A DNA stretch of 39,000 bases from Chiloscyllium plagiosum. Lineage: Eukaryota. The DNA lies in assembly GCF_004010195.1 (NCBI RefSeq), contig NW_025214096.1, positions 1-39,000 on the forward strand, given 5' to 3'. Shown one piece after another: positions 1,683 to 37,452 of this stretch (positions are counted from its first letter, which is position 1; each line of letters starts with the position of its first letter). A program made the position numbers and the translations under genes. The notes under the pieces are model-generated. The model was not told where the DNA came from, ran no database searches, and saw only the letters and a list, made by a program, of their open reading frames with translations.

Positions 1683-4600
1683 ATTATTCATGTGGCTCTA
1701 TCACCAATCCACTGTGTCAGTGTTACATTATTCATGTGGCTCTATCACCAATCCACTGTGTCAGTGTTACATTATTCATGTGGCTCTATCACCAATCCAC
1801 TGTGTCAGTGTTACATTATTCATGTGGCTCTATCACCAATCCACTGTGTCAGTGTTACATTATTCATGTGGCTCTATCACCAATCCACTGTGTCAGTGTT
1901 ACATTATTCATGTGGCTCTATCACCAATCCACTGTGTCAGTGTTACATTATTCATGTGGCTCTATCACCAATCCACTGTGTCAGTGTTACATTATTCATG
2001 TGGCTCTATCACCAATCCACTGTGTCAGTGTTACATTATTCATGTGGCTCTATCACCAATCCACTGTGTCAGTGTTACATTATTCATGTGGCTCTATCAC
2101 CAATCCACTGTGTCAGTGTTACATTATTCATGTGGCTCTATCACCAATCCACTGTGTCAGTGTTACATTATTCATGTGGCTCTATCACCAATCCACTGTG
2201 TCAGTGTTACATTATTCATGTGGCTCTATCACCAATCCACTGTGTCAGTGTTACATTATTCATGTGGCTCTATCACCAATCCACTGTGTCAGTGTTACAT
2301 TATTCATGTGGCTCTATCACCAATCCACTGTGTCAGTGTTACATTATTCATGTGGCTCTATCACCAATCCACTGTGTCAGTGTTACATTATTCATGTGGC
2401 TCTATCACCAATCCACTGTGTCAGTGTTACATTATTCATGTGGCTCTATCACCAATCCACTGTGTCAGTGTTACATTATTCATGTGGCTCTATCACCAAT
2501 CCACTGTGTCAGTGTTACATTATTCATGTGGCTCTATCACCAATCCACTGTGTCAGTGTTACATTATTCATGTGGCTCTATCACCAATCCACTGTGTCAG
2601 TGTTACATTATTCATGTGGCTCTATCACCAATCCACTGTGTCAGTGTTACATTATTCATGTGGCTCTATCACCAATCCACTGTGTCAGTGTTACATTATT
2701 CATGTGGCTCTATCACCAATCCACTGTGTCAGTGTTACATTATTCATGTGGCTCTATCACCAATCCACTGTGTCAGTGTTACATTATTCATGTGGCTCTA
2801 TCACCAATCCACTGTGTCAGTGTTACATTATTCATGTGGCTCTATCACCAATCCACTGTGTCAGTGTTACATTATTCATGTGGCTCTATCACCAATCCAC
2901 TGTGTCAGTGTTACATTATTCATGTGGCTCTATCACCAATCCACTGTGTCAGTGTTACATTATTCATGTGGCTCTATCACCAATCCACTGTGTCAGTGTT
3001 ACATTATTCATGTGGCTCTATCACCAATCCACTGTGTCAGTGTTACATTATTCATGTGGCTCTATCACCAATCCACTGTGTCAGTGTTACATTATTCATG
3101 TGGCTCTATCACCAATCCACTGTGTCAGTGTTACATTATTCATGTGGCTCTATCACCAATCCACTGTGTCAGTGTTACATTATTCATGTGGCTCTATCAC
3201 CAATCCACTGTGTCAGTGTTACATTATTCATGTGGCTCTATCACCAATCCACTGTGTCAGTGTTACATTATTCATGTGGCTCTATCACCAATCCACTGTG
3301 TCAGTGTTACATTATTCATGTGGCTCTATCACCAATCCACTGTGTCAGTGTTACATTATTCATGTGGCTCTATCACCAATCCACTGTGTCAGTGTTACAT
3401 TATTCATGTGGCTCTATCACCAATCCACTGTGTCAGTGTTACATTATTCATGTGGCTCTATCACCAATCCACTGTGTCAGTGTTACATTATTCATGTGGC
3501 TCTATCACCAATCCACTGTGTCAGTGTTACATTATTCATGTGGCTCTATCACCAATCCACTGTGTCAGTGTTACATTATTCATGTGGCTCTATCACCAAT
3601 CCACTGTGTCAGTGTTACATTATTCATGTGGCTCTATCACCAATCCACTGTGTCAGTGTTACATTATTCATGTGGCTCTATCACCAATCCACTGTGTCAG
3701 TGTTACATTATTCATGTGGCTCTATCACCAATCCACTGTGTCAGTGTTACATTATTCATGTGGCTCTATCACCAATCCACTGTGTCAGTGTTACATTATT
3801 CATGTGGCTCTATCACCAATCCACTGTGTCAGTGTTACATTATTCATGTGGCTCTATCACCAATCCACTGTGTCAGTGTTACATTATTCATGTGGCTCTA
3901 TCACCAATCCACTGTGTCAGTGTTACATTATTCATGTGGCTCTATCACCAATCCACTGTGTCAGTGTTACATTATTCATGTGGCTCTATCACCAATCCAC
4001 TGTGTCAGTGTTACATTATTCATGTGGCTCTATCACCAATCCACTGTGTCAGTGTTACATTATTCATGTGGCTCTATCACCAATCCACTGTGTCAGTGTT
4101 ACATTATTCATGTGGCTCTATCACCAATCCACTGTGTCAGTGTTACATTATTCATGTGGCTCTATCACCAATCCACTGTGTCAGTGTTACATTATTCATG
4201 TGGCTCTATCACCAATCCACTGTGTCAGTGTTACATTATTCATGTGGCTCTATCACCAATCCACTGTGTCAGTGTTACATTATTCATGTGGCTCTATCAC
4301 CAATCCACTGTGTCAGTGTTACATTATTCATGTGGCTCTATCACCAATCCACTGTGTCAGTGTTACATTATTCATGTGGCTCTATCACCAATCCACTGTG
4401 TCAGTGTTACATTATTCATGTGGCTCTATCACCAATCCACTGTGTCAGTGTTACATTATTCATGTGGCTCTATCACCAATCCACTGTGTCAGTGTTACAT
4501 TATTCATGTGGCTCTATCACCAATCCACTGTGTCAGTGTTACATTATTCATGTGGCTCTATCACCAATCCACTGTGTCAGTGTTACATTATTCATGTGGC

Positions 4601-7600
4601 TCTATCACCAATCCACTGTGTCAGTGTTACATTATTCATGTGGCTCTATCACCAATCCACTGTGTCAGTGTTACATTATTCATGTGGCTCTATCACCAAT
4701 CCACTGTGTCAGTGTTACATTATTCATGTGGCTCTATCACCAATCCACTGTGTCAGTGTTACATTATTCATGTGGCTCTATCACCAATCCACTGTGTCAG
4801 TGTTACATTATTCATGTGGCTCTATCACCAATCCACTGTGTCAGTGTTACATTATTCATGTGGCTCTATCACCAATCCACTGTGTCAGTGTTACATTATT
4901 CATGTGGCTCTATCACCAATCCACTGTGTCAGTGTTACATTATTCATGTGGCTCTATCACCAATCCACTGTGTCAGTGTTACATTATTCATGTGGCTCTA
5001 TCACCAATCCACTGTGTCAGTGTTACATTATTCATGTGGCTCTATCACCAATCCACTGTGTCAGTGTTACATTATTCATGTGGCTCTATCACCAATCCAC
5101 TGTGTCAGTGTTACATTATTCATGTGGCTCTATCACCAATCCACTGTGTCAGTGTTACATTATTCATGTGGCTCTATCACCAATCCACTGTGTCAGTGTT
5201 ACATTATTCATGTGGCTCTATCACCAATCCACTGTGTCAGTGTTACATTATTCATGTGGCTCTATCACCAATCCACTGTGTCAGTGTTACATTATTCATG
5301 TGGCTCTATCACCAATCCACTGTGTCAGTGTTACATTATTCATGTGGCTCTATCACCAATCCACTGTGTCAGTGTTACATTATTCATGTGGCTCTATCAC
5401 CAATCCACTGTGTCAGTGTTACATTATTCATGTGGCTCTATCACCAATCCACTGTGTCAGTGTTACATTATTCATGTGGCTCTATCACCAATCCACTGTG
5501 TCAGTGTTACATTATTCATGTGGCTCTATCACCAATCCACTGTGTCAGTGTTACATTATTCATGTGGCTCTATCACCAATCCACTGTGTCAGTGTTACAT
5601 TATTCATGTGGCTCTATCACCAATCCACTGTGTCAGTGTTACATTATTCATGTGGCTCTATCACCAATCCACTGTGTCAGTGTTACATTATTCATGTGGC
5701 TCTATCACCAATCCACTGTGTCAGTGTTACATTATTCATGTGGCTCTATCACCAATCCACTGTGTCAGTGTTACATTATTCATGTGGCTCTATCACCAAT
5801 CCACTGTGTCAGTGTTACATTATTCATGTGGCTCTATCACCAATCCACTGTGTCAGTGTTACATTATTCATGTGGCTCTATCACCAATCCACTGTGTCAG
5901 TGTTACATTATTCATGTGGCTCTATCACCAATCCACTGTGTCAGTGTTACATTATTCATGTGGCTCTATCACCAATCCACTGTGTCAGTGTTACATTATT
6001 CATGTGGCTCTATCACCAATCCACTGTGTCAGTGTTACATTATTCATGTGGCTCTATCACCAATCCACTGTGTCAGTGTTACATTATTCATGTGGCTCTA
6101 TCACCAATCCACTGTGTCAGTGTTACATTATTCATGTGGCTCTATCACCAATCCACTGTGTCAGTGTTACATTATTCATGTGGCTCTATCACCAATCCAC
6201 TGTGTCAGTGTTACATTATTCATGTGGCTCTATCACCAATCCACTGTGTCAGTGTTACATTATTCATGTGGCTCTATCACCAATCCACTGTGTCAGTGTT
6301 ACATTATTCATGTGGCTCTATCACCAATCCACTGTGTCAGTGTTACATTATTCATGTGGCTCTATCACCAATCCACTGTGTCAGTGTTACATTATTCATG
6401 TGGCTCTATCACCAATCCACTGTGTCAGTGTTACATTATTCATGTGGCTCTATCACCAATCCACTGTGTCAGTGTTACATTATTCATGTGGCTCTATCAC
6501 CAATCCACTGTGTCAGTGTTACATTATTCATGTGGCTCTATCACCAATCCACTGTGTCAGTGTTACATTATTCATGTGGCTCTATCACCAATCCACTGTG
6601 TCAGTGTTACATTATTCATGTGGCTCTATCACCAATCCACTGTGTCAGTGTTACATTATTCATGTGGCTCTATCACCAATCCACTGTGTCAGTGTTACAT
6701 TATTCATGTGGCTCTATCACCAATCCACTGTGTCAGTGTTACATTATTCATGTGGCTCTATCACCAATCCACTGTGTCAGTGTTACATTATTCATGTGGC
6801 TCTATCACCAATCCACTGTGTCAGTGTTACATTATTCATGTGGCTCTATCACCAATCCACTGTGTCAGTGTTACATTATTCATGTGGCTCTATCACCAAT
6901 CCACTGTGTCAGTGTTACATTATTCATGTGGCTCTATCACCAATCCACTGTGTCAGTGTTACATTATTCATGTGGCTCTATCACCAATCCACTGTGTCAG
7001 TGTTACATTATTCATGTGGCTCTATCACCAATCCACTGTGTCAGTGTTACATTATTCATGTGGCTCTATCACCAATCCACTGTGTCAGTGTTACATTATT
7101 CATGTGGCTCTATCACCAATCCACTGTGTCAGTGTTACATTATTCATGTGGCTCTATCACCAATCCACTGTGTCAGTGTTACATTATTCATGTGGCTCTA
7201 TCACCAATCCACTGTGTCAGTGTTACATTATTCATGTGGCTCTATCACCAATCCACTGTGTCAGTGTTACATTATTCATGTGGCTCTATCACCAATCCAC
7301 TGTGTCAGTGTTACATTATTCATGTGGCTCTATCACCAATCCACTGTGTCAGTGTTACATTATTCATGTGGCTCTATCACCAATCCACTGTGTCAGTGAT
7401 ACATTATTATCCCAGCTCTATCACCAATCCACTGTATCAGTGTTACGTTATTAACACAGGTCCATTACCAATCCACTGTGTCAGTGTTACGGTATTAACA
7501 CAGCTCTATCACCAATCCACTGTGTTAGTGTTACATTATTAACACAGGTCCATTACCAATGCACTGTGTCAGTGATACATTATTAACACAGCTCTATCAC

Positions 7601-7716
7601 CAATCCACTGTGTTAGTGTTACGTTATTAACACAGCTCTATCACCAATCCACTGTGTCAGTGTTACATTATCAACCCAGCTCCATCACCAATCTGCAGTG
7701 TCAGCGTTACATTATT
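1683..7716. repeat. 44-bp tandem satellite, about 137 units
   Basis: Unit ATTATTCATGTGGCTCTATCACCAATCCACTGTGTCAGTGTTAC. No mismatch seen from 1683 to 7398 (about 130 units; printed lines recur every 660 bp), then about 7 diverged units to 7716. Confidence 0.99.
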
Positions 7717-9066: not shown

Positions 9067-10427
9067 AAAATCTCTAGCTATCTACTCTATCTATGTCTCT
9101 CATTAGATTGTACACCTCTATCAAGTCACCTCTCTTCCTTCTTCTCTCCAGTGTGAAAAGCCCGAGCTCACTCAACCTCTCTTCATAAGACATGCCTTCC
9201 AATCCGGGCAGCACCCTGGTAAGTCTCCTCTGCACTCTTTCTGAAGCATCGACATCCTTTTTATAGTGAGGCAACGAGAACTGGACACAATATTCCAAGT
9301 ATGGTCTAACCAGGGTTTTATGGAGCAAATCATCGTGACTCTTAAACTTAATCCCCCCTGTTAATGAAAGTCAAAATACCACACATCTTCTTAACAACAC
9401 TATCAACTCGGGTGGCAACTTTGAGGGATCTAGGTACATGGACCCCAAAGTCTCGTTGTTCCTCCACATTGCCAAGAATCCTGACTTTAGCCCTGTATTC
9501 AGCATTCAAATTCAACCTTCCAAATTAAATCACTTTGATTTAACTCGGTTGAATCAGTGCAGGCTCGAAGGGCAGAATGGCCTACTCCTGCACCTATTGT
9601 CTATAATCCCATCTGCCACTTCTCAGCCCAGCTCTGCAACCTGTCATTGTCTTATTGTAGCCTGCAACAGCCCTCGACACTATCTGCAACACCACCGGCC
9701 TTTGTGTCATCGGCAAACTTACTAACCCACCTTCCACTTCTTCGTTCAAGTCATTTATAAAAACCAGAAAGAGCAGAGGCCCAAGAACAGATCCCTGCCG
9801 GATACCACTGGTCACTGACCTCCAAGCAGAATGTTTTCCATCCACTACCACTAGCTGTCTTCTTTCAGCCAGCCAATTCTGTATCTGGACAGTCAAAGTC
9901 CGCTGTATCCTATACCTCCTAACTTTCTGAATGAGCCTACCGTGAGGAACCTGATCAAATGCCTTACTGAAATCCATATACACCACACCAACTGTTCGAT
10001 CTTCGTTAACTTGTCTTGTCAAATCTCAGTAAGGCTTGTCAGGCATGACCTGGCCCTCACAAAGCCATGCTGACTATCTTTCATCAAACAATGTTTCTCC
10101 AAATAGTCATAAATCCTACCTTTCAGTATTCTTTCCAGTAGCTTGCTGACCACACATGTAAGACTGACTGTTCTTTAATTCCCAGGGATTTCCCTATTCT
10201 CTTTCTTGAACAGAGGAACAACATTCGCCTCCCTCCAATCACCTGATACTACTCCCATGCAGAGTGAGGATGCAAAGATCATAGCCAGTGGCACAGCAAT
10301 CTTATTCCTTGCTTCCTGTAGTAACTTTGGATGTATCTGGTCTGGCCCTGTGGACTTATCTACCTTGATGCTTCCCAGAATTTCCAGCACATCCACTTTC
10401 TTAATATCAATCTGTTCAAGCCTATTA

Positions 10428-10655
10428 CCAAAAGAGAAAACGCTGGAAAATCTCATCAGGTCTGGCAGCATCTGTAAGGAGAGAAAAGAGCTGACGTTTC
10501 GAGTCTAACTGACCCTTTTTCTTAATATCAATCTGTTCAAGCCGAGTACCAAAAGAGAAAACACTGGAAAATCTCAGCAGGTCTGGCAGCATCTGTAAGG
10601 AGAGAAAAGAGCTGACATTTCGAGTCTAACTGACCCTTTGTCAAAGCTGACCCTT
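10428..10655 (-). mobile_element. Tandem pair of short PLE-like terminal fragments (another family) with a 15-bp TSD
   Basis: Two copies of CCAAAAGAGAAAAC(G/A)CTGGAAAATCTCA...GAGTCTAACTGACCCTTT; TGTTCAAGCCTATTA is duplicated at 10413-10427 and 10656-10670. Confidence 0.75.
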
Positions 10656-11289: not shown

Positions 11290-13008
11290 ATGAGATAACA
11301 AGAATCCAGAGAAAGTATTTACCTGTTAGGGTGAAAGGAAAGGCTGTTAGGTAAGGGGGAATGCTGGATTACGAAAGAAATTGAGGGTTTGATTAAGAAA
11401 AAGAAGGAAGCATATGGCAGGTAGAGACAGGATATCTTGAGTGAATCCTTAGAAGAGTATAAAGATAGCAGGAGTATACTCAAGAGGGAAATCAGGAGGG
11501 CAAAAAGGGGACATGAGATAGCTTTGGCAAATAGAATTAATGAGAATCCTAAGGGTTTTTACAAGGGTTTTTAAGGACAAAAGGGTAACTAGGAAGAGAA
11601 TAGGGCCCCTCAAAGATCAGCAAGGTGGTCCTTGTGTGGAGCCGCAGACAATGGGGAGATACTAAACGCGTATTTTGCATCAGTATTTACTGTGGAAAAG
11701 GATATGGAAGACATAGAATGTCGGGGAATAGATGGTGACATCTTGAAAAATGTCCATATTACAGAGGAGGAAGTGCTGGATGTCTTGGAATGCATAAAAG
11801 TGGATGGAAAAGCGCAGCAGGTCAGGCAGCATCCAGGGAACAGGAGAATCGACGTTTCGGGCATAAGCCCTCCTAACTCTTCTTAGTCCAGGCTTATGCC
11901 CGAAACGTCGATTCTCCTGTTCCCTGGATGCTGCATGGTTTGGAAAGGCAAGGACTGATTAGGGATAGTCAACATGGCTTTGTGCGTGGGAAATCATGTC
12001 TCACAAACTTGATTGAGTTTTTTGAAGAAGTAACAAAGAGAATTGATGAGGGCAGAGTGGTAGATGTGATCTATATGGACTTCTGTAAGCTGTTTGACAA
12101 GTTTCCCCATGGGAGACTGGTTAGCAAGGTTAGATCTGACAGAATAGAGGCATTTGGAGACAGAACTGGTTCAAAGGTAGAAGACAGAGGGTGGTGGTGG
12201 TGGGTTGTTTTTCAGACTGGAAGCCTGTGACCAGTGGAGTGCCACAAGGATCGGTGCTGGGTCCGCTACTTTTTGTCATATATATAAATGATTTGGACGT
12301 GAGTATAAGAGGTATCGTTAGTAAGTTTGCAGATGACAACAAAATTGGAGGTGTAGTGGACAGCGAAGCAGGTTACCTCAGATTACAACAGATGGGTCAA
12401 TGGGCTGAGAAGTGGTAGATCGAGTTTAATTGAGATAAGTGCGAGGTGCTGCATTTTGGGAAAGCAAATCTTAGCAGGACTTATACACTTATTGGTAAGG
12501 TCCGAGGGAGTGTTGCTGAACAAAGAGACCTTGGAGTGCAGGTTCATAGCTCTTTGAAAGTGGAGTCGCAGATCGACAGGATAGTGAAGAAGACATTTGG
12601 TATGCTTTCCTTTATTGGTCAGAGTATTGAGTACAGGGGTTGGGAGGTCATATTGCGGTTGTACAGGACATTGGTTAGGCCACTGTTGGTTAGGAATATT
12701 GCGTGCAATTCTGGTCTCCTTCCTATCAGAAAGATGTTATGAAACTTGAAAGGGTTCAGAAAAGATTTATAAGGATGTTTCCAGTGTTGGAGGATTTAAG
12801 CTATAAGGAGAGACTGAACAGGCTGGGGCTGTTTTCCCTGGAGCGTCGGATGCTGAGGCGTGACCTTATAGAGGTTTACAAATTTATGAGGGGCATGGAT
12901 AGGATAAATAGACAAAGTCTTTTCCCTGGGGTCAGGGAGTCCAGAACTAGAGGGCATAGGTTTAGGGTGAGAGGGGAAAGACATAAAAGAGACGTAAAGG
13001 GCAGCTTT
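11290..13008 (+). mobile_element. CR1 LINE ORF2 fragment (RT), frameshifted
   Basis: [71 protein letters not shown]. Confidence 0.93.
11805..11934. mobile_element. PLE-terminus hairpin insert: perfect 44-bp inverted repeat around a 21-nt loop
   Basis: 11826-11869 is the exact reverse complement of 11891-11934; arms contain GGCTTATGCCCGAAACGTCGATTC; it replaces a deleted stretch of the host CR1. Confidence 0.9.
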
Positions 13009-14846
13009 CGGTTGGTTGGTGCGGGTGTCCCAGAGGTGTTCTCTGAAACCACCGAACTCATCTCTGCATACCTTGACACGGTCCTGTCCCCCTTAGTCCA
13101 AGAACTCCCCACCTACGTTTGGGACACCACCCCCGTCCTCCACCTCCTCCATGATTTTCGCTTCCCCGACCCCCAACGCCTTATCTTCACCATGGACATC
13201 CAGTCCCTGTACACCTCTATCGCCCATCACGAAGGCCTCAAAGCCCTCCGCCAAACCAACCAGTAACCTTTCACTGACACCCTCCTTCGAATGACTGAAC
13301 TGGTCCTCACTCTGAACAACTTCTCTTTCCAATCCTCCCACTTCCTCCAAACCAAAGGAGTAGCTATGGGCACCCTCATGGGTCCCAGCTATGCCTGCCT
13401 CTTCGTCAGATATGTGGGACAGTCCATCTTCCACAGCTACACTTGGCACCACCCCCCACCTTTTCCTCCGCTACATCGATGATTATATCGACACTACCTT
13501 GTGCTCCCACGAGGAGGTTGAACAGTTCATCCACTTTACTAACACTTTCCACCCCGACCTCAAATTTACCTGCACCGTCGCAGACTCTTCCCTCCCCTTC
13601 CGAGACCTCTCCATTTCTATCTCGGATGACCGACTCAACACGGACGTTTACTATAAACCGACCGACTCCCACAGCTACCTAAATTACACCTCCTCCCAAC
13701 CTGCCAGCCCATATTCCCAATTTCTTCGCCTCCATCGCATCTGCTCCCAGGAGGACCAATCCCAATCCCAAACAACCCAGATGGCCTCCTTCTTCAAAGA
13801 CCGCAATTTCCTCTCAGACGTGGTTGACGATGCTCTTCACCGCATATCCTCCACTTACTGCTCCTCCGCCCCAGAACCCCGCCCCTCCAATCGCCACCAG
13901 GATAGAACCCCATTGGTCCTCACCTACCATCCCACCAACCTCCAGATACATCATATCATCCTTGGTCATTTCCGCCACCTCCAAACAGACCCCACCACCA
14001 AGGACATATTTCCCTCCACTCCCCTATCAGCATTCTGAAAAGACCACTCCCTCTGCGACTCCCTCGTCAGGTCCACACCCCTCACCAACCCAAACTCCAC
14101 TCCCGGCACCTTCTCGTGCAACCGCAAGAAATGCAAAACTTGCACCCACACCACCCCCTCACTTCCCTCCAAGGCCCCAAGGGATCATTCCATATCCATC
14201 ACAAATTCACTTGCACCTCCACACACATCTTTTACTGCATCTGCTGCACCCGATGTGGCTTCCTATACACTGGGGAGACAGGCCGCCTATTGCGGAATAT
14301 TTCAGAGAACACCTCTGGGACACCTGCACCAACGAACCCAACCGCCCCGTGGCTGAACACTTTAACTCCCCCTCCCACTCCACCAAGGACATGCAGGTCC
14401 TTGGCCTCCTCCATTGCCAGACCATGGCAACACGACGCATGGCATCTTCCGCCCAGGAACCCTCCAACCACAAGGAATGAATGCTGATTCCTCCAGCTTC
14501 TTCATTTCCCCTCCCCCACCTTTTCTCAGTTCCAACCCTCGGACTCAGCACTGCCTTCTTGACCTGCAATCTTCTTCCCGACCTCTCTGCCCCCACTCCC
14601 TCTCCGGCCTATCACCCTCACCTTAACCTCCTTCCACCTATCGCATTCCCAACACCCCTCCCCCAAGTCCCTCCTTCCTACCTTTTATCTTAGCCTGCTT
14701 GGCACACCCTCCTTATTCTGAAGAAGGGCTTATGCCCGAAACGTCGATTCTCCTGCTCCTTTGATGCTGCCTGACCTGCTGCGCTTTTCCAGCAACACAT
14801 TTTTCAGCTCTGATCTCCAGCATCTGCAGTCCTCACTTTCTCCTAC
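13009..14846 (+). mobile_element. Penelope-like element (Neptune-like): RT, Cys-rich linker, GIY-YIG endonuclease and 3' terminal repeat; pseudogenised
   Basis: FTMDIQSLYTSI, NNFSF..HFLQTKGVAMGT.MGPSYA, FLRYIDD, TDVYYKPTDSHSYL, CNRKKCKTC linker, FTCTSTHIFYCICCTRCGFLYTGETGR; 13009-13048 is a short inverted copy of about 14299-14343. Confidence 0.93.
14714..14749 (+). ncRNA. Minimal type I hammerhead ribozyme motif in the Neptune-like PLE terminus
   Basis: CTGAAGA (14718-14724), A, stem II GGGC-TTAT-GCCC, GAAA (14738-14741), CGTC (palindromic ACGT, GUC site). Stem I is weak in this copy. Confidence 0.7.
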
Positions 14847-15285
14847 TAAATGTGACCAATCCAGCAATGCCCACACCTCATGCATGGCGAATAGGAAAGT
14901 TCCCTTGGTTTGATTATCTTTCTCAAATGCATAACCTTCAGATTGACTGCACTCTGTGATTGCACTGGAGCTGGTGCAGATGTGATCGATTAGGATGTTG
15001 CCTGAGCTGGAGTGATTCAACTGTGAAGACAGACTTGATAGGCTGTTTGTTGAAGAAAACTCTCGAGACTCAGACCTTGAGAACTTATTAGTTTATTACA
15101 TTTTATATCATGGGGAATTCACCATCCTAACTGTGGCTCAGTGCTATTCCGAAGTACATCAGGATACTACAGAGAGAGCAGATAGGAGCTGATCGTTAAT
15201 TACAGTTTGGTATGCTTACAAGTTGGTACTAAATTAGAGGTTAGCCGTTGTTGTGGTTCTGTTCGCCGAGCTGGGAATTTGTGTT

Positions 15286-15325
15286 GCAGACGTTTCGTCC
15301 CCTGTCTAGGTGACATCCTCAGTGC
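15286..15325 (-). ncRNA. Minimal hammerhead ribozyme motif (inverted 5' repeat copy)
   Basis: Exact reverse complement of 17330-17369. Confidence 0.78.
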
Positions 15326-16307
15326 TTGGGAGCCTCCTGTGAAGCGCTTCTGTGATGTTTCGTCCGGCATTTGTAGTGGTTTGAATCTGCCGCTTCCGGT
15401 TGTGAGTTCCAGCTGTCTGTTGCAGTGGTCGGTATATTGGGTCCAGGTCGATGTGCTTATTGATTGAATCTGTGGATGAGTGCCATGCCTCTAGGAATTC
15501 CCTGGCTGTTCTCTGTTTGGCTTGTCCTATAATAGTAGTGTTGTCCCAGTCGAATTCATGTTGCTTGTCATCTGCGTGTGTGGCTACTAAGAATTCTTGG
15601 ACATCATCAGAAATATACACATAGACAAGGAATAACCATGGTCTCATTCGATGTAACAGCACTGTTTACCTCTATCGACAAAACCCTAGCCAGAGAAACA
15701 ATAGCCAACCTGCTGGACGTACAGAACAGACAACAGGACGTTGAACCTATCAACAAAGACGGCATACTCAAACTACTAGACCTGTGCCTCATAACACACT
15801 TCACATTCAACAACAAAATATATGAACAAATCAACGGCATACCCATGGACTCACCCACCTCTGGACTCATAGCAGAAGTGGTAATGCAAAGATTAGAACA
15901 AACAGTCTTACCGCAAATTCAACCCAAACTCTGGGTCAGATATGTGGATGACACCTTTGTAATCATTGAAAACACAGAAATAGAGAACACACACCGGATC
16001 ATCAACGCCAAACTCACAGGAATCTGATTCACTAGAGAGGAAGAAAAGGACAACCAACTCCCATTCCTAGACATGATGATATTGAGAATACCTAACAGAG
16101 AATTCACCACAAAGGTGTACAGGAAAGCCACACACACAGACCAAGTCCTGAACTATGAAAGCAAACGCCCCAAGACACACAAAAGAAGTTGCATCAAGAC
16201 ACTATTCAAAAGGGCCACAACACACTGCAGTACACCAGAACTGCAAAAAGAGGAAGAAGAACACCTATACAATGTATTCACCAAAATGGATACCCCCGCA
16301 ATTTCAT

Positions 16308-16526
16308 TAGGGATTGTCTGTTTGGATTTGCTAGACGACTGTCCTCTGATATTGATGAGGGCCGTGCAGATGATGTGGTTTATATGGAGTTCATTGAGGT
16401 CTTTGACGAGGTCCCACACGGAAGGCTGGTCCAAAAGGGAAGAGCCCATTGGATCCAAGGCAAGTTGGCAAATTGGGTCCTCAATTGGTGGAGGGTTGTT
16501 TTTGGGATAGAAAGCCATTGTCCAGC
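16308..16526 (+). mobile_element. CR1 RT fragment embedded in the PLE
   Basis: Translates IDEGRADDVVYMEFIEVFDEVPHGRLVQKGRAHWIQGKLANWV; flanked by duplicated PLE segments 16088-16307 and 16527-16737. Confidence 0.85.
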
Positions 16527-17329
16527 ATACCTAACGGAGAATTCACCACTAAGGTATACAGGAAAGCCACACACACAGACCCAAGTCCTGAACTACGAAA
16601 GCAACCGCCCCAAGACACACAAAAGAAGTTGCATCAAGACACTATTCAAAAGGGCCACAACACACTGCAGCACACCAGAACTGCAAAAAGAGGAAGAAGA
16701 ACACCTTCGCCAAAAATGGATACCTACGCAATTTCATCAACAGATGCCTAAGGGAAAGATAACGGAACGAGGACATGCCGCACCCAAAGGACTAGCCACA
16801 CTACCATACATCAAGAGTATTTCCGAACTGACAGCCAGACTACTGCGACCACTAGCACACATAACAGCACACAAACCAACAGCCACTCTCAGACAACAAC
16901 TCACCAGAACGAAGGACCCGATACTCAGCATGAGCAAAACCAATGTAGTGTATAAAATCCCAAGCAAGGACTGCACAAAACACCACATAGGACAAACAGG
17001 AAGACAGCTAACGATCCGCATCCATGAACACCAACTAGCGACGAAACGACACGACCAGCTATCCTTAGTAGCCACACATGCTTTTGACAAGCAACATGAA
17101 TTCGACTGGGACAACACTACTATTATAGGACAAGCCAAACAGAGAACAGCCAGGGAATTCCTAGAGGCATGGCACTCATCCACAGATTCAATCAATAAGC
17201 ACATCGACCTGGACCCAATATACCGACCACTGCAACGCACAGCTGGAACTGACAAACGGAAGTGGCAGATTCAAACCACTACAAATGCCGGAGGAAAGAT
17301 CACAGAAGCGCTTCACAGGAGGCTCCCAA

Positions 17330-17369
17330 GCACTGAGGATGTCACCTAGACAGGGGACGAAACGTCTGC
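17330..17369 (+). ncRNA. Minimal type I hammerhead ribozyme motif in the Poseidon-like PLE 3' repeat
   Basis: GCA-CTGAGGA-T-GTCACC-TAGACA-GGGGAC-GAAA-CGTC-TGC: stem I GCA/TGC, intact CUGANGA and GAAA cores, predicted cleavage after C17366. Confidence 0.8.
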
Positions 17370-17969
17370 AACACAAATTCCCAGCTCGGCGAACAGAACC
17401 ACAACAACAAACACCTGAGCTACAAATCTTCTTACAAACTTAGAGGTTAGCCATTAGGGTCAAAACTAAAGCACTATTATGCATTCCACAAGTGGACAGA
17501 ACAAATAGCATCACCATTTGTTCTATTTACACAGATTGCTAACACTAAGCAGAGATGTCCCCAATTAGCTGAATGACAGTGAAGTGGAAATAACACGTGA
17601 AGGAAGTGGGGACTAGTTGACAAGTCTATATCTGCTTGACTGGTTCTACAGCCTGCACTGATCATTCTTCAAACAGAGGAAACACTGATTTGACACCTTA
17701 GGAAGATAAGGCCAACCTTTCACATTACCTCATAGTAAGGAATGCACAGCCAGCAAAGTTCTGGGGACACAAAAGTTTCTCAGTCGGATTAGGAAAATGG
17801 CTTCCAAGCCAACCATGTTAACTTTTCCCTAACACTGTTTAATTCAGAGAAGACTCAGTGGGACATGGAGGAGATCTGATCAATGCACACCAACAGGTTC
17901 TGAGGAGCAAAGACATGGTTTATTGGGAGAACTTTTGGCATGAATAGAAGGGCCATTAATTAGCAGGTA

Positions 17970-18483: not shown

Positions 18484-18713
18484 GTAGAAGAAAGTGAGGA
18501 CTGCAGATGCTGGAGGTCAGAGCTGAAAATGTGGTGCTGGAAAAGCACAGCAGGTCAGGCAGCATCCAAGGAGCAGGAGAATCGGCGTTTCAGGCATAAG
18601 CCCTTCTTCAGGAATGAGGTAAGTGTGCCAAGCAGGCTAAGATAAAAGGTAGGGAGGAGGGACTTGGGGGAGGGGCATTGGAAATGCAATAGGTGGAAGG
18701 AGGTTAAGGTGAG
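18484..18713 (-). mobile_element. Neptune-like PLE 3' terminal fragment with hammerhead motif
   Basis: Reverse complement of about 14615-14846; CTGAAGA core at 18611..18605. Confidence 0.85.
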
Positions 18714-19048
18714 GCACCACCAACATACAGGAACAGCAGAGGGACCATTATCAGCCACTTGGATCTTAATTGGCAATGGATTGTGGGGAAATCAAACCAT
18801 CCACTTGTTAGATGCATATTTTGGGGAAAAAAAATCGAATGTTTAGGGGAAAACATGTTGGTGTCAATCGGAGTTGGCTGAATAATAAGAGGCAGAAACG
18901 TATCATTTCTGGGTTGGCAAGATGTAATGACGAGCATTTGATGGGAATCTTATTTCTGTTTGGTCATCAGATGTGGAAATTTAGGCTAGATCTGCACTTA
19001 CAGCTCATCCCTGTCTGCCTTGGAGGAGACTGTGTCACATGACTCGAT

Positions 19049-19311: not shown

Positions 19312-19512
19312 AGGCCTATCACCCTCACCTTAACCTCCTTCCACCTATCATATTCCCAGCGCTCCTCCCCCAAGTCCCTCCTCCTTCCCTTTTGTCTTAG
19401 CCTGCTTGGCACACCCTCCTCATTTCTGAAGAAGGGCTTATGCCCGAAATGTCGATTCTCCTGTTCCTTTGATGCTGCCTGACCTGCTGCGCTTTTCCAG
19501 CAACACATTTTT
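19312..19512 (+). mobile_element. Neptune-like PLE 3' terminal fragment with hammerhead motif
   Basis: Matches about 14605-14805; CTGAAGA at 19426-19432, GGGC-TTAT-GCCC, GAAA. Confidence 0.85.
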
Positions 19513-20250
19513 AATCTATGTGTGGAGCAAGAAGAGGGAGGTGAGGTCCTAAATGAATACTTTGTGTCAGTATTCACCAAAGAAAAGGAATTGGTGGAGG
19601 ATGATGTCAGGAAAGGCTATGTCCAATTTCTAAGCCAAGTTGCTATTAAAAAGGAAGCGGTGTTGTGCATCTAAAAAAGCGTTAAGGTAGATAAACCCGA
19701 GGATCCTGATGGGATCTCTCTCAGAATATCGTGGGAGGCAAGAGATCAAATTGATAGACATCTTTGGCTGCAAGTGAGGTCCCCCCAGAGGACGAGAGAA
19801 TAGCCAATGTTGTCCCATTGTTTAAGAAAGGGAGCAGTGTTAATCCAGGAAATTACAGGCCTGTGAGTCTCAAATCGGTGGTAGGGAAATTAATGGAAAA
19901 GATTCACAGGGACAAGATCCACACGGATTTAGAAGCAAATGGACTTCTTAGTGACATGGGAAAAGTTTTTTGAGGAGGTGAAGATGATTGATGAGGGAAA
20001 CATAAATGATTTTATCCATGTGAACTTCAGTAAAGCCTTTGACCAGGTCTCTCACGACAGACACAAAAGGTGAAGTTACATGGTATCAGGGGTGAGCTAA
20101 CAAGATGAATACAGAACTGGCTTAGTCCTCGGTGATAGAGGTATCGGTGGAAGGATGCTTTTCACAATGGAGGGCTGCGACTAGTAGTGTTCCACAATGA
20201 TCAGTGCTGGAACCTCTACTGTTCACATAAATGATTTGGAAGAAAATGTG
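19513..20250 (+). repeat. Local duplicate of CR1 segment 25579-26428
   Basis: Near-identical, including shared disabling changes (e.g. CCACAATGATCAGTGCTGGAACCTCTACTGTTCACATAAATG). Confidence 0.9.
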
Positions 20251-30120: not shown

Positions 30121-30290
30121 GAGGTGCCGGTGTTGGACTGTGGTGGACAAATCACACAACACCAGGTTATCGACCAACAGGTTTATTTGAAAGTACAAGC
30201 GTTTGAGTGTTGTTCACCTAACAAAGGAGCAGTGCTCCGAAAGCTTGTACTTTCAAATGTACCTGTTGGACTAGAACCTAGTCTTGTGAT
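30121..30290. mobile_element. Palindromic short element with a degenerate hammerhead-like core (further PLE-like family)
   Basis: CCAACAGGTTTATTTGAAAGTACAAGC is inverted to GCTTGTACTTTCAAATGTACCTGTTGG; centre CAC-CTAACAA-A-GGAGC-AGT-GCTCC-GAAA-GCTT-GT. Confidence 0.6.
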
Positions 30291-36700: not shown

Positions 36701-37452
36701 AGGTGTTGGAATCCAAAATACACGCGCAGGAAGCTGGAAGAACAAAATAAGCAAGGCAGCATCAAGACTTTCAGAAGTGAACGCCTTGGATATAACCCTT
36801 CGTCAGGACTGTGGATGGGAGTAAGGGCGTCCATAGATAAAGGGGTAGGTGAGGAAGGAGGAGGCAGAGTGGCGAGGTGGGGATAAGGGATAAGTGGAGA
36901 TAAAGGGTATCAGCGGGTTGGTGATGGGAGTGCTGAATCCAGTTGGTAGCAGGACAAAAGGTTGCTCAGGGGAATGGAAGGCGGGGAGGAGTTGGGAAGC
37001 TAGTCGGGGGGATTGGAAGGGAGGTTATTTGAAATTGGAGAATTCAGTGTTGAGTCCCCGGTGTGCACACGTGACAGATGAGATCTTGTTCCTCTAAATT
37101 ATGGTTTGGTTCATTTTGGCAATGGAGGAGGCTAAGGATGACCATGTTGGAAAGGGATTGGGAAAGAGAATTGAAATAAGAAGTGACTGGGAGGTCTTCC
37201 ATTCCACCTAACGACCCTACCTTTCAGCTCGCAACTGGATTAATACCTCCCATCGCCCAAACAGGTTGCACCCACCACTTGTGTCCATATAGCCGTAACT
37301 TGCCATATCCCTGTTCTCCCCACCCCAAACACTCCCTTCCCTCTTTATCTGCAGCTCCCCCTACACCCCCCACCCCAGTTCTGAAGAACGGTTATACCTG
37401 AAATGTTGACTTTCCCTACTCATGATGCTGCCTGGCTTGCTGTTTTCTTCCA
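36701..37452. mobile_element. Inverted pair of old PLE 3' ends with hammerhead remnants
   Basis: Minus arm about 36701-37200 (CCCTTCGTCAGGACT = CTGACGA core); plus arm to 37452 with AGTT-CTGAAGA-ACGGTTATACCT-GAAA-TGTT-GACT near 37377-37411. Confidence 0.7.

Follow-up and report, generated by a model that had tools for sequence, protein, structure and literature searches.

Two minimal hammerhead ribozyme motifs stand in opposite orientation at the ends of one Penelope-like element (PLE) in a 39,000-nt stretch of Chiloscyllium plagiosum DNA (contig NW_025214096.1; hereafter the window), and their arrangement raises the question of whether they work as a pair or were duplicated together with the sequence around them. 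A first-pass annotation had described the two motifs as intact and identical, and it suggested that sense and antisense transcripts could both be cleaved. The description holds: the 40-mer at 17330-17369 matches the reverse complement of 15286-15325 at every base, the CUGAGGA and GAAA core elements are intact, A9 is followed by a single extra U, ACGU is all that remains of helix III, and a TAG at 17347-17349 within loop II closes the frame 16159-17349. The proposed class is likewise upheld, namely the minimal type I hammerhead of a PLE, whose palindromic helix III is thought to act in dimers. The motif pair is not a separate feature; it is part of the inverted repeat of one broken PLE copy. 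Very probably both hammerheads are the normal end-repeat motif of the family, doubled by an inverted 345-nt copy at the 5′ end of one insertion.

One broken insertion and the motifs within it

One 5′-truncated, broken insertion, assigned below to the Penelope/Poseidon clade, spans 15247-17439 and is bounded by a 13-bp target-site duplication (TSD). The features of the locus are as follows.

15234-15246, no strand: left TSD copy, 13 bp, identical to 17440-17452; the adjacent bases differ on each side
15247-15591, minus strand: inverted 5′ arm, 345 nt, without tail, a copy of the element 3′ end at 17064-17408
15286-15325, minus strand: minimal type I hammerhead, inverted copy, the reverse complement of 17330-17369
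15589-15598, no strand: head-to-head junction, a 10-bp perfect palindrome read from the sequence, with a 3-nt microhomology between arm and body at 15589-15591
15591-16307, plus strand: 5′-truncated reverse transcriptase (RT) core, from Pfam RVT_1, identity to C. punctatum proteins and tblastn frames
16308-16523, plus strand: foreign insert of 216 nt interrupting the ORF
16524-16737, plus strand: internal duplicate of 16085-16307 (202/225 identity, gaps included)
16750-17349, plus strand: C-terminal GIY-YIG-type endonuclease region, with its stop at 17347-17349 in ribozyme loop II
17330-17369, plus strand: minimal type I hammerhead of the 3′ pLTR, predicted cut at 17366/17367 (after C17366), matching the consensus published in Fig. 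S3 of PMC4209133
17339-17440, plus strand: family ORF start, the first 34 codons (of the next tandem unit); the ATG at 17339-17341 is formed by A9, the extra U and G10.1
17409-17439, plus strand: PLE tail, 31 nt, right arm only
17440-17452, no strand: right TSD copy, 13 bp, identical to 15234-15246

Alignment of the inverted repeats (15247-15594 against 17061-17408) gave 336 identical positions out of 348; of the 12 differing positions one marks the junction, so that the 345-nt arm proper contains 11 mismatches. That the two motifs are identical is not surprising, since they lie inside near-identical arms and a 40-nt identical stretch has P=0.27 in arms with 11 mismatches per 345 nt. None of the 11 mismatches falls in the outer 110 nt of the arms, which include the ribozyme (17299-17408 versus 15247-15356; P 0.014 by sites and 0.045 counting 8 events, both post hoc). 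This mismatch-free stretch leaves room for chance, gene conversion or constraint, and it counts against reading the inverted motif as a passenger. The arms reach 42 nt and 73 nt beyond the predicted cut site, indicating that the template copied for this insertion was uncut there. The inverted 5′ copy, the tail within the 30-40 nt range at one end and the TSD are those of an EN+ PLE insertion unit.

The RT core was matched by Pfam RVT_1 with E 1.8e-6 (28.3 bits, slightly below the cut-off of 29.6), and the tblastn frames revealed a frameshift near 15633 and an in-frame stop at 16025-16027. Protein comparison, performed with longer proteins only, gave 34 matches among 330 candidates. The closest relatives among the proteins searched were those of Chiloscyllium punctatum, 84-89% identical to the RT query, followed by other carpet sharks, unnamed records and flatworms; identity was 48-57% to named flatworm proteins overall and 55-57% to the trematode proteins P0016, P0012 and P0018. 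In an RT tree of 34 rows, built without named Penelope, Poseidon or Cercyon references, the window element grouped with four C. punctatum proteins (support 100/99). A recent horizontal transfer between sharks and flatworms is unsupported, the shark rows being separate from the flatworm rows and the deeper forks weak.

Over 148 aa the endonuclease region shares 47% identity with the C-terminus of P0016, and P0002 ends in the same STEDVT, at the same loop II stop, as the window frame. Searching the endonuclease fragment of the window for the Pfam GIY-YIG domain produced no match; the domain is annotated (precomputed) on the relatives P0020 and P0021. An RT followed by a C-terminal GIY-YIG endonuclease (EN) in one ORF, the arrangement of EN+ PLEs, is thus present in broken form. 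No zinc-finger-like linker between RT and EN was found in the window translation, nor in P0002 or P0016; such a linker is given as a feature of Neptune and Nematis in the available text of PMC8557442. Alignment of the C-terminal part with the endonuclease part of P0016, combined with the missing Neptune-type linker, points to a place in the Penelope/Poseidon clade, an assignment made from sequence comparison. A non-LTR retrozyme, described in the accessible part of bioRxiv 10.64898/2026.07.22.740005 as non-coding tandem units with a type I hammerhead in each, was ruled out: the copies here are inverted, they flank an RT-EN remnant, and there is no tandem array at the locus.

Within the element ORF, 16085-16737 comprises a 225-nt internal duplication with a LINE-like 216-nt piece between the copies. 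Pfam returned no RT match for this insert (16308-16523), which resembles a piece of a LINE RT gene.

The motif itself has the core of the metazoan PLE minimal hammerhead of type I (CUGANGA ... GAAA-N-palindrome-NUH), sits in a PLE pLTR and extends over the stop codon that ends the RT-EN frame. Its helix II is long and its helix I short, with covariation among relatives. U17340 is unpaired between A9 and G10.1, the G10.1-C11.1 pair is G17341-C17358, and helix II holds one mismatch, A17344.G17355, that the first-pass annotation had not recorded. A strict hammerhead descriptor returned four matches in the window, namely the pair, one at 14718 in a second PLE family and one at 36806 that is probably spurious; the chance level in 200 Markov shuffles, made from the window minus its satellite, averaged 0.035 matches and never exceeded 1. 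The search with hammerhead models that the annotation had suggested, run with Rfam over the whole window, yielded no hammerhead up to E 5 and three unrelated weak matches. Viral contigs scanned with the motif pattern gave 68 matches, none of them a relative.

Related motifs were sought in the best 80 of 457 confirmed metagenome loci (68 clusters). A relaxed descriptor identified 19 motifs, which lie in 17 of these 80 loci and 12 of the clusters; none of 5 shuffles gave a match. The CG palindrome is present in 17 of these 19 motifs, and the extra base after A9 is A in 13 and U in the other 6. Inverted repeats of at least 80 nt were found in 21 of the same 80 loci (17 of the 68 clusters), and in two loci, L039 and L051, the inverted arms hold a pair of ribozymes on opposite strands, in the same layout as in the window. 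Stem covariation was examined in an alignment of 11 motifs, consisting of 9 of the 19 related motifs and the 2 window motifs; the near-duplicates L026, L028, L029, L031, L034 and L037, two minus-strand partners, and L040 and L062 (different helix III) were left out. Helix I, which the descriptor does not demand, covaries in this alignment, with two-sided changes at 3/3 pairs and 90.9% of cells paired, indicating that the motif class is a real, conserved structure. Helix II was selected by the descriptor, so its pairing is not independent evidence.

The window contains further repeats. The remnant of the second PLE family (13364-14850, plus strand) has a Cys-rich linker before its endonuclease (Neptune-like) and an intact minimal hammerhead of its own at 14718-14745, with a 4-bp helix II; eleven further end fragments of this family lie within the window. 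A tiny fold-back of its end (11805-11874, minus strand, and 11891-11937, plus strand) places two truncated ribozyme halves head-to-head in a host sequence that resembles a LINE, and an older opposite-strand pair of the same end (18484-18714, minus strand, and 19313-19520, plus strand) has a decayed ribozyme core in each member. Elsewhere there are a very homogeneous 44-bp tandem array at 1683-7716 (137 copies, 99% matches), which adjoins a fragment resembling 13526-13705, a 121-bp tandem dimer of a short repeat end at 10397-10639, and an 84-nt hairpin at 30180-30263 with a weak microRNA-model score (36.9 bits against a cut-off of 90).

Origin of the inverted arm

The inverted arm is likely to be a by-product of insertion, and the second motif is best explained as a passenger, carried along with the inverted 5′ copy that is usual for such elements. 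For the copying step we favour, with reasonable though limited confidence, a scheme with two primers. The RT-GIY-YIG protein would cut both target strands and one cDNA would be primed from each; the two cDNAs would begin at two internal RT start sites, one running for ~1.85 kb and the other for 345 nt, and would be joined by microhomology. For the anole protein, the available text of PMC11167929 describes cutting and extension of both strands, two internal RT starts that define the tail, and hammerhead cleavage that is dispensable. Since the ribozyme lies directly upstream of both start sites, an arm formed in this way would carry it once longer than ~80 nt. In intact tandem members of the family, the motif is predicted to be a weak dimeric or protein-assisted ribozyme.

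The ends of the family were examined in four public sequencing runs aligned to 16745-17500; these represent three coded organisms, with a best word share of 0.52, and the species may differ from that of the window. The family is high-copy (27,153, 124,478 and 7,118 contigs in three runs; 794 RNA reads in run X21, ~2% of that run). Its loose ends concentrate at two places, 17405-17408 and 17441, which are the two ends found in the window insertion: in X21 there were 22, 24 and 32 reads at 17406, 17407 and 17408 and 92 reads at 17441, and in DNA run X2 62 contigs had a loose end at 17407. Measured from the AUG embedded in the ribozyme, the two arm ends lie at +70 and +101, matching the two preferred 3′ ends of the family. 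Among the 40 of 273 difference rows that were listed, none falls within 17299-17408, suggesting that the window copy carries the family majority there, at a resolution where minor variants are not visible. For 8 of the 11 mismatches between the arms, the change is private to the right arm and the left arm carries the majority letter of the family, which fits a single template followed by independent decay.

A possible but doubtful alternative keeps the single event but has the arm arise at the junction palindrome, where antisense RNA or cDNA would prime itself or fold back, with no second priming on a target strand. It differs from the two-primer scheme in the copying step only, and the ribozyme pair would remain a passenger. 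The junction palindrome is perfect over its 10 bp, and self-priming on an antisense template is the preferred view of such palindromes in the accessible text of PMC3846280. Against this, the arm begins at the equivalent of 17064, ~1.47 kb from the point where the body is truncated, so that a simple hairpin needs a jump, and the outer end of the arm falls on the second RT start site of the family, a position that follows directly from two primings. An origin from two separate insertions of this family, adjacent or nested, would draw on its great abundance but is very unlikely, since a single TSD encloses both arms, the arm alone is unbounded by any TSD, and the arms agree at 12/12 listed family-polymorphic sites within 17064-17408.

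Predicted activity of the motifs

Under the reading of the first-pass annotation, each hammerhead would cut its own transcript, one sense and one antisense. The annotation had cautioned that pairing of the long inverted repeat could mask the fold, and the modelling bears this out: in the whole-element ensemble, the probability of pairing with the other arm reached 0.999-1.0 and that of the ribozyme stems 0.0 on both strands, and the arm duplex was modelled at -697.6 kcal/mol versus -6.0 for the monomer ribozyme fold. These are equilibrium calculations that neglect co-transcriptional kinetics and transcripts initiating inside the element; a transcript of the latter kind would hold one arm only. 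Both cores are intact, the 110 nt surrounding them are identical between the arms, and in the isolated 40-mer stems I and II were modelled at a probability of 0.63-0.77 for three of the four tested pairs and 0.39 for the fourth, all of which speaks for a functional pair. With 30-130 nt of native flank, however, the same stem pairs dropped to 0.002-0.05. MFE folds recovered no hammerhead and were no better than shuffles (z -0.15 to -1.05).

A double hammerhead requires two same-sense copies. The opposite copy is the reverse complement and so cannot provide the second half, which leaves a single monomer on each strand. A modelled dimer of two 40-mers reached -12.7 kcal/mol versus -20.9 for the best alternative. 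For metazoan minimal hammerheads, cleavage of monomers is described as undetectable and that of dimers as weak in the available text of PMC4209133, and the anole Poseidon hammerhead is reported in the corresponding part of PMC11167929 to cleave only on adding the element protein. The ORF at this locus is also broken. Among the 794 family reads of X21, depth was continuous over the cut site with no pile of starts or ends, which is weak evidence given a poly(A) single-cell library and reads from other family copies. Among first mates, depth at the ribozyme was ~215 for the minus strand and 33 for the plus strand, which fits mostly sense RNA. Taken together, these points make two-strand cleavage at this locus unlikely and the motifs here most likely inert, and the functional pair is scarcely credible as an account of the arrangement.

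Start-codon overlap and comparison with known systems

The frame that opens at the ribozyme ATG shares 88% identity with the corresponding N-terminal part of P0005 and 47% with the N-terminus of the 824-aa P0016. In metagenome locus L031 an apparently intact 811-aa PLE ORF (170-2799), lying between direct repeats, starts at the AUG inside its hammerhead, in the position that the ATG occupies in the window motif. An ORF start overlapping the hammerhead is reported for the anole element in the available text of PMC11167929; the overlap is already published for that element, and novelty of the wider pattern is not claimed. One speculative reading, to which we attach little weight, is that the hammerhead might serve as a triple-coded junction and translation switch in this part of the Penelope/Poseidon clade. 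The stop of one unit would lie in loop II, the start of the next unit at A9-U-G10.1 and the cut 28 nt into the ORF, and folding or protein-assisted cleavage might remove the start of the element's own mRNA once protein accumulates. Such a switch cannot be general, since the extra base is U in only six of the 19 related motifs from the best 80 of 457 loci. Viral ribozymes with a role in translation are described in the accessible part of PMC13725137. The start codon within the ribozyme core offers a concrete test of hammerhead function in intact family members, not at this locus.

In its motifs the window agrees with what the available text and figures of Cervera and De la Pena 2014 (PMC4209133) present for metazoan PLE minimal hammerheads: the core, the extra base after A9, the G10.1-C11.1 pair and a CG for helix III are common to both. 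The resemblance is closest to the Clonorchis sinensis Cercyon motifs of that paper, with which it shares the GCA/UGC helix I, the extra U, the 6-nt loop and the CG, and in both a 6-bp helix II opens with GUC, whereas the A.G mismatch belongs to the window motif. The text there reports dual minimal hammerheads on opposite strands 100-700 bp apart, in contrast to a spacing of ~2 kb in the window, and Fig. S4A depicts a second, opposite-strand minimal hammerhead at the 5′ end of a truncated PLE. The motifs compared in Fig. S3 include no cartilaginous fish, whereas the window is from a shark.

Similarly, an inverted pLTR with TSD, a 31-bp tail and junction palindromes are described in the available part of PMC3846280. 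The EN+ PLE insertion unit of that paper and PMC8557442, as far as their accessible text presents it, shares with the window the inverted 5′ copy, the 31-nt tail on one arm, the TSD, the junction palindrome and a pLTR bearing the first ORF codons. The window TSD is 13 bp as against 8-10 bp in the rotifer examples, and the window copy is without a direct 5′ pLTR and has its body cut inside the RT. Relative to the Poseidon element PAc of Anolis carolinensis, as given in the available text of PMC11167929, the ORF opens where stem II begins in both elements, and the cut lies 26 nt farther downstream in PAc and 28 nt in the window; in both, two RT start sites define the tail and RNA-seq ends are absent from the cut site. 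The start sites lie at +70/+101 in the window and at 111-118 for the main site of PAc, and the window copy is broken.

The locus is one more dead copy with a textbook PLE insertion structure and has little significance as found. It is also a clean example, in which TSD, tail, junction and both family 3′ ends can be read within 2.2 kb and the template was uncut at the ribozyme. With motifs of a known kind, in an arrangement in print since 2014 and described in the text and figures available from PMC4209133, PMC3846280 and PMC8557442, it is an ordinary finding.
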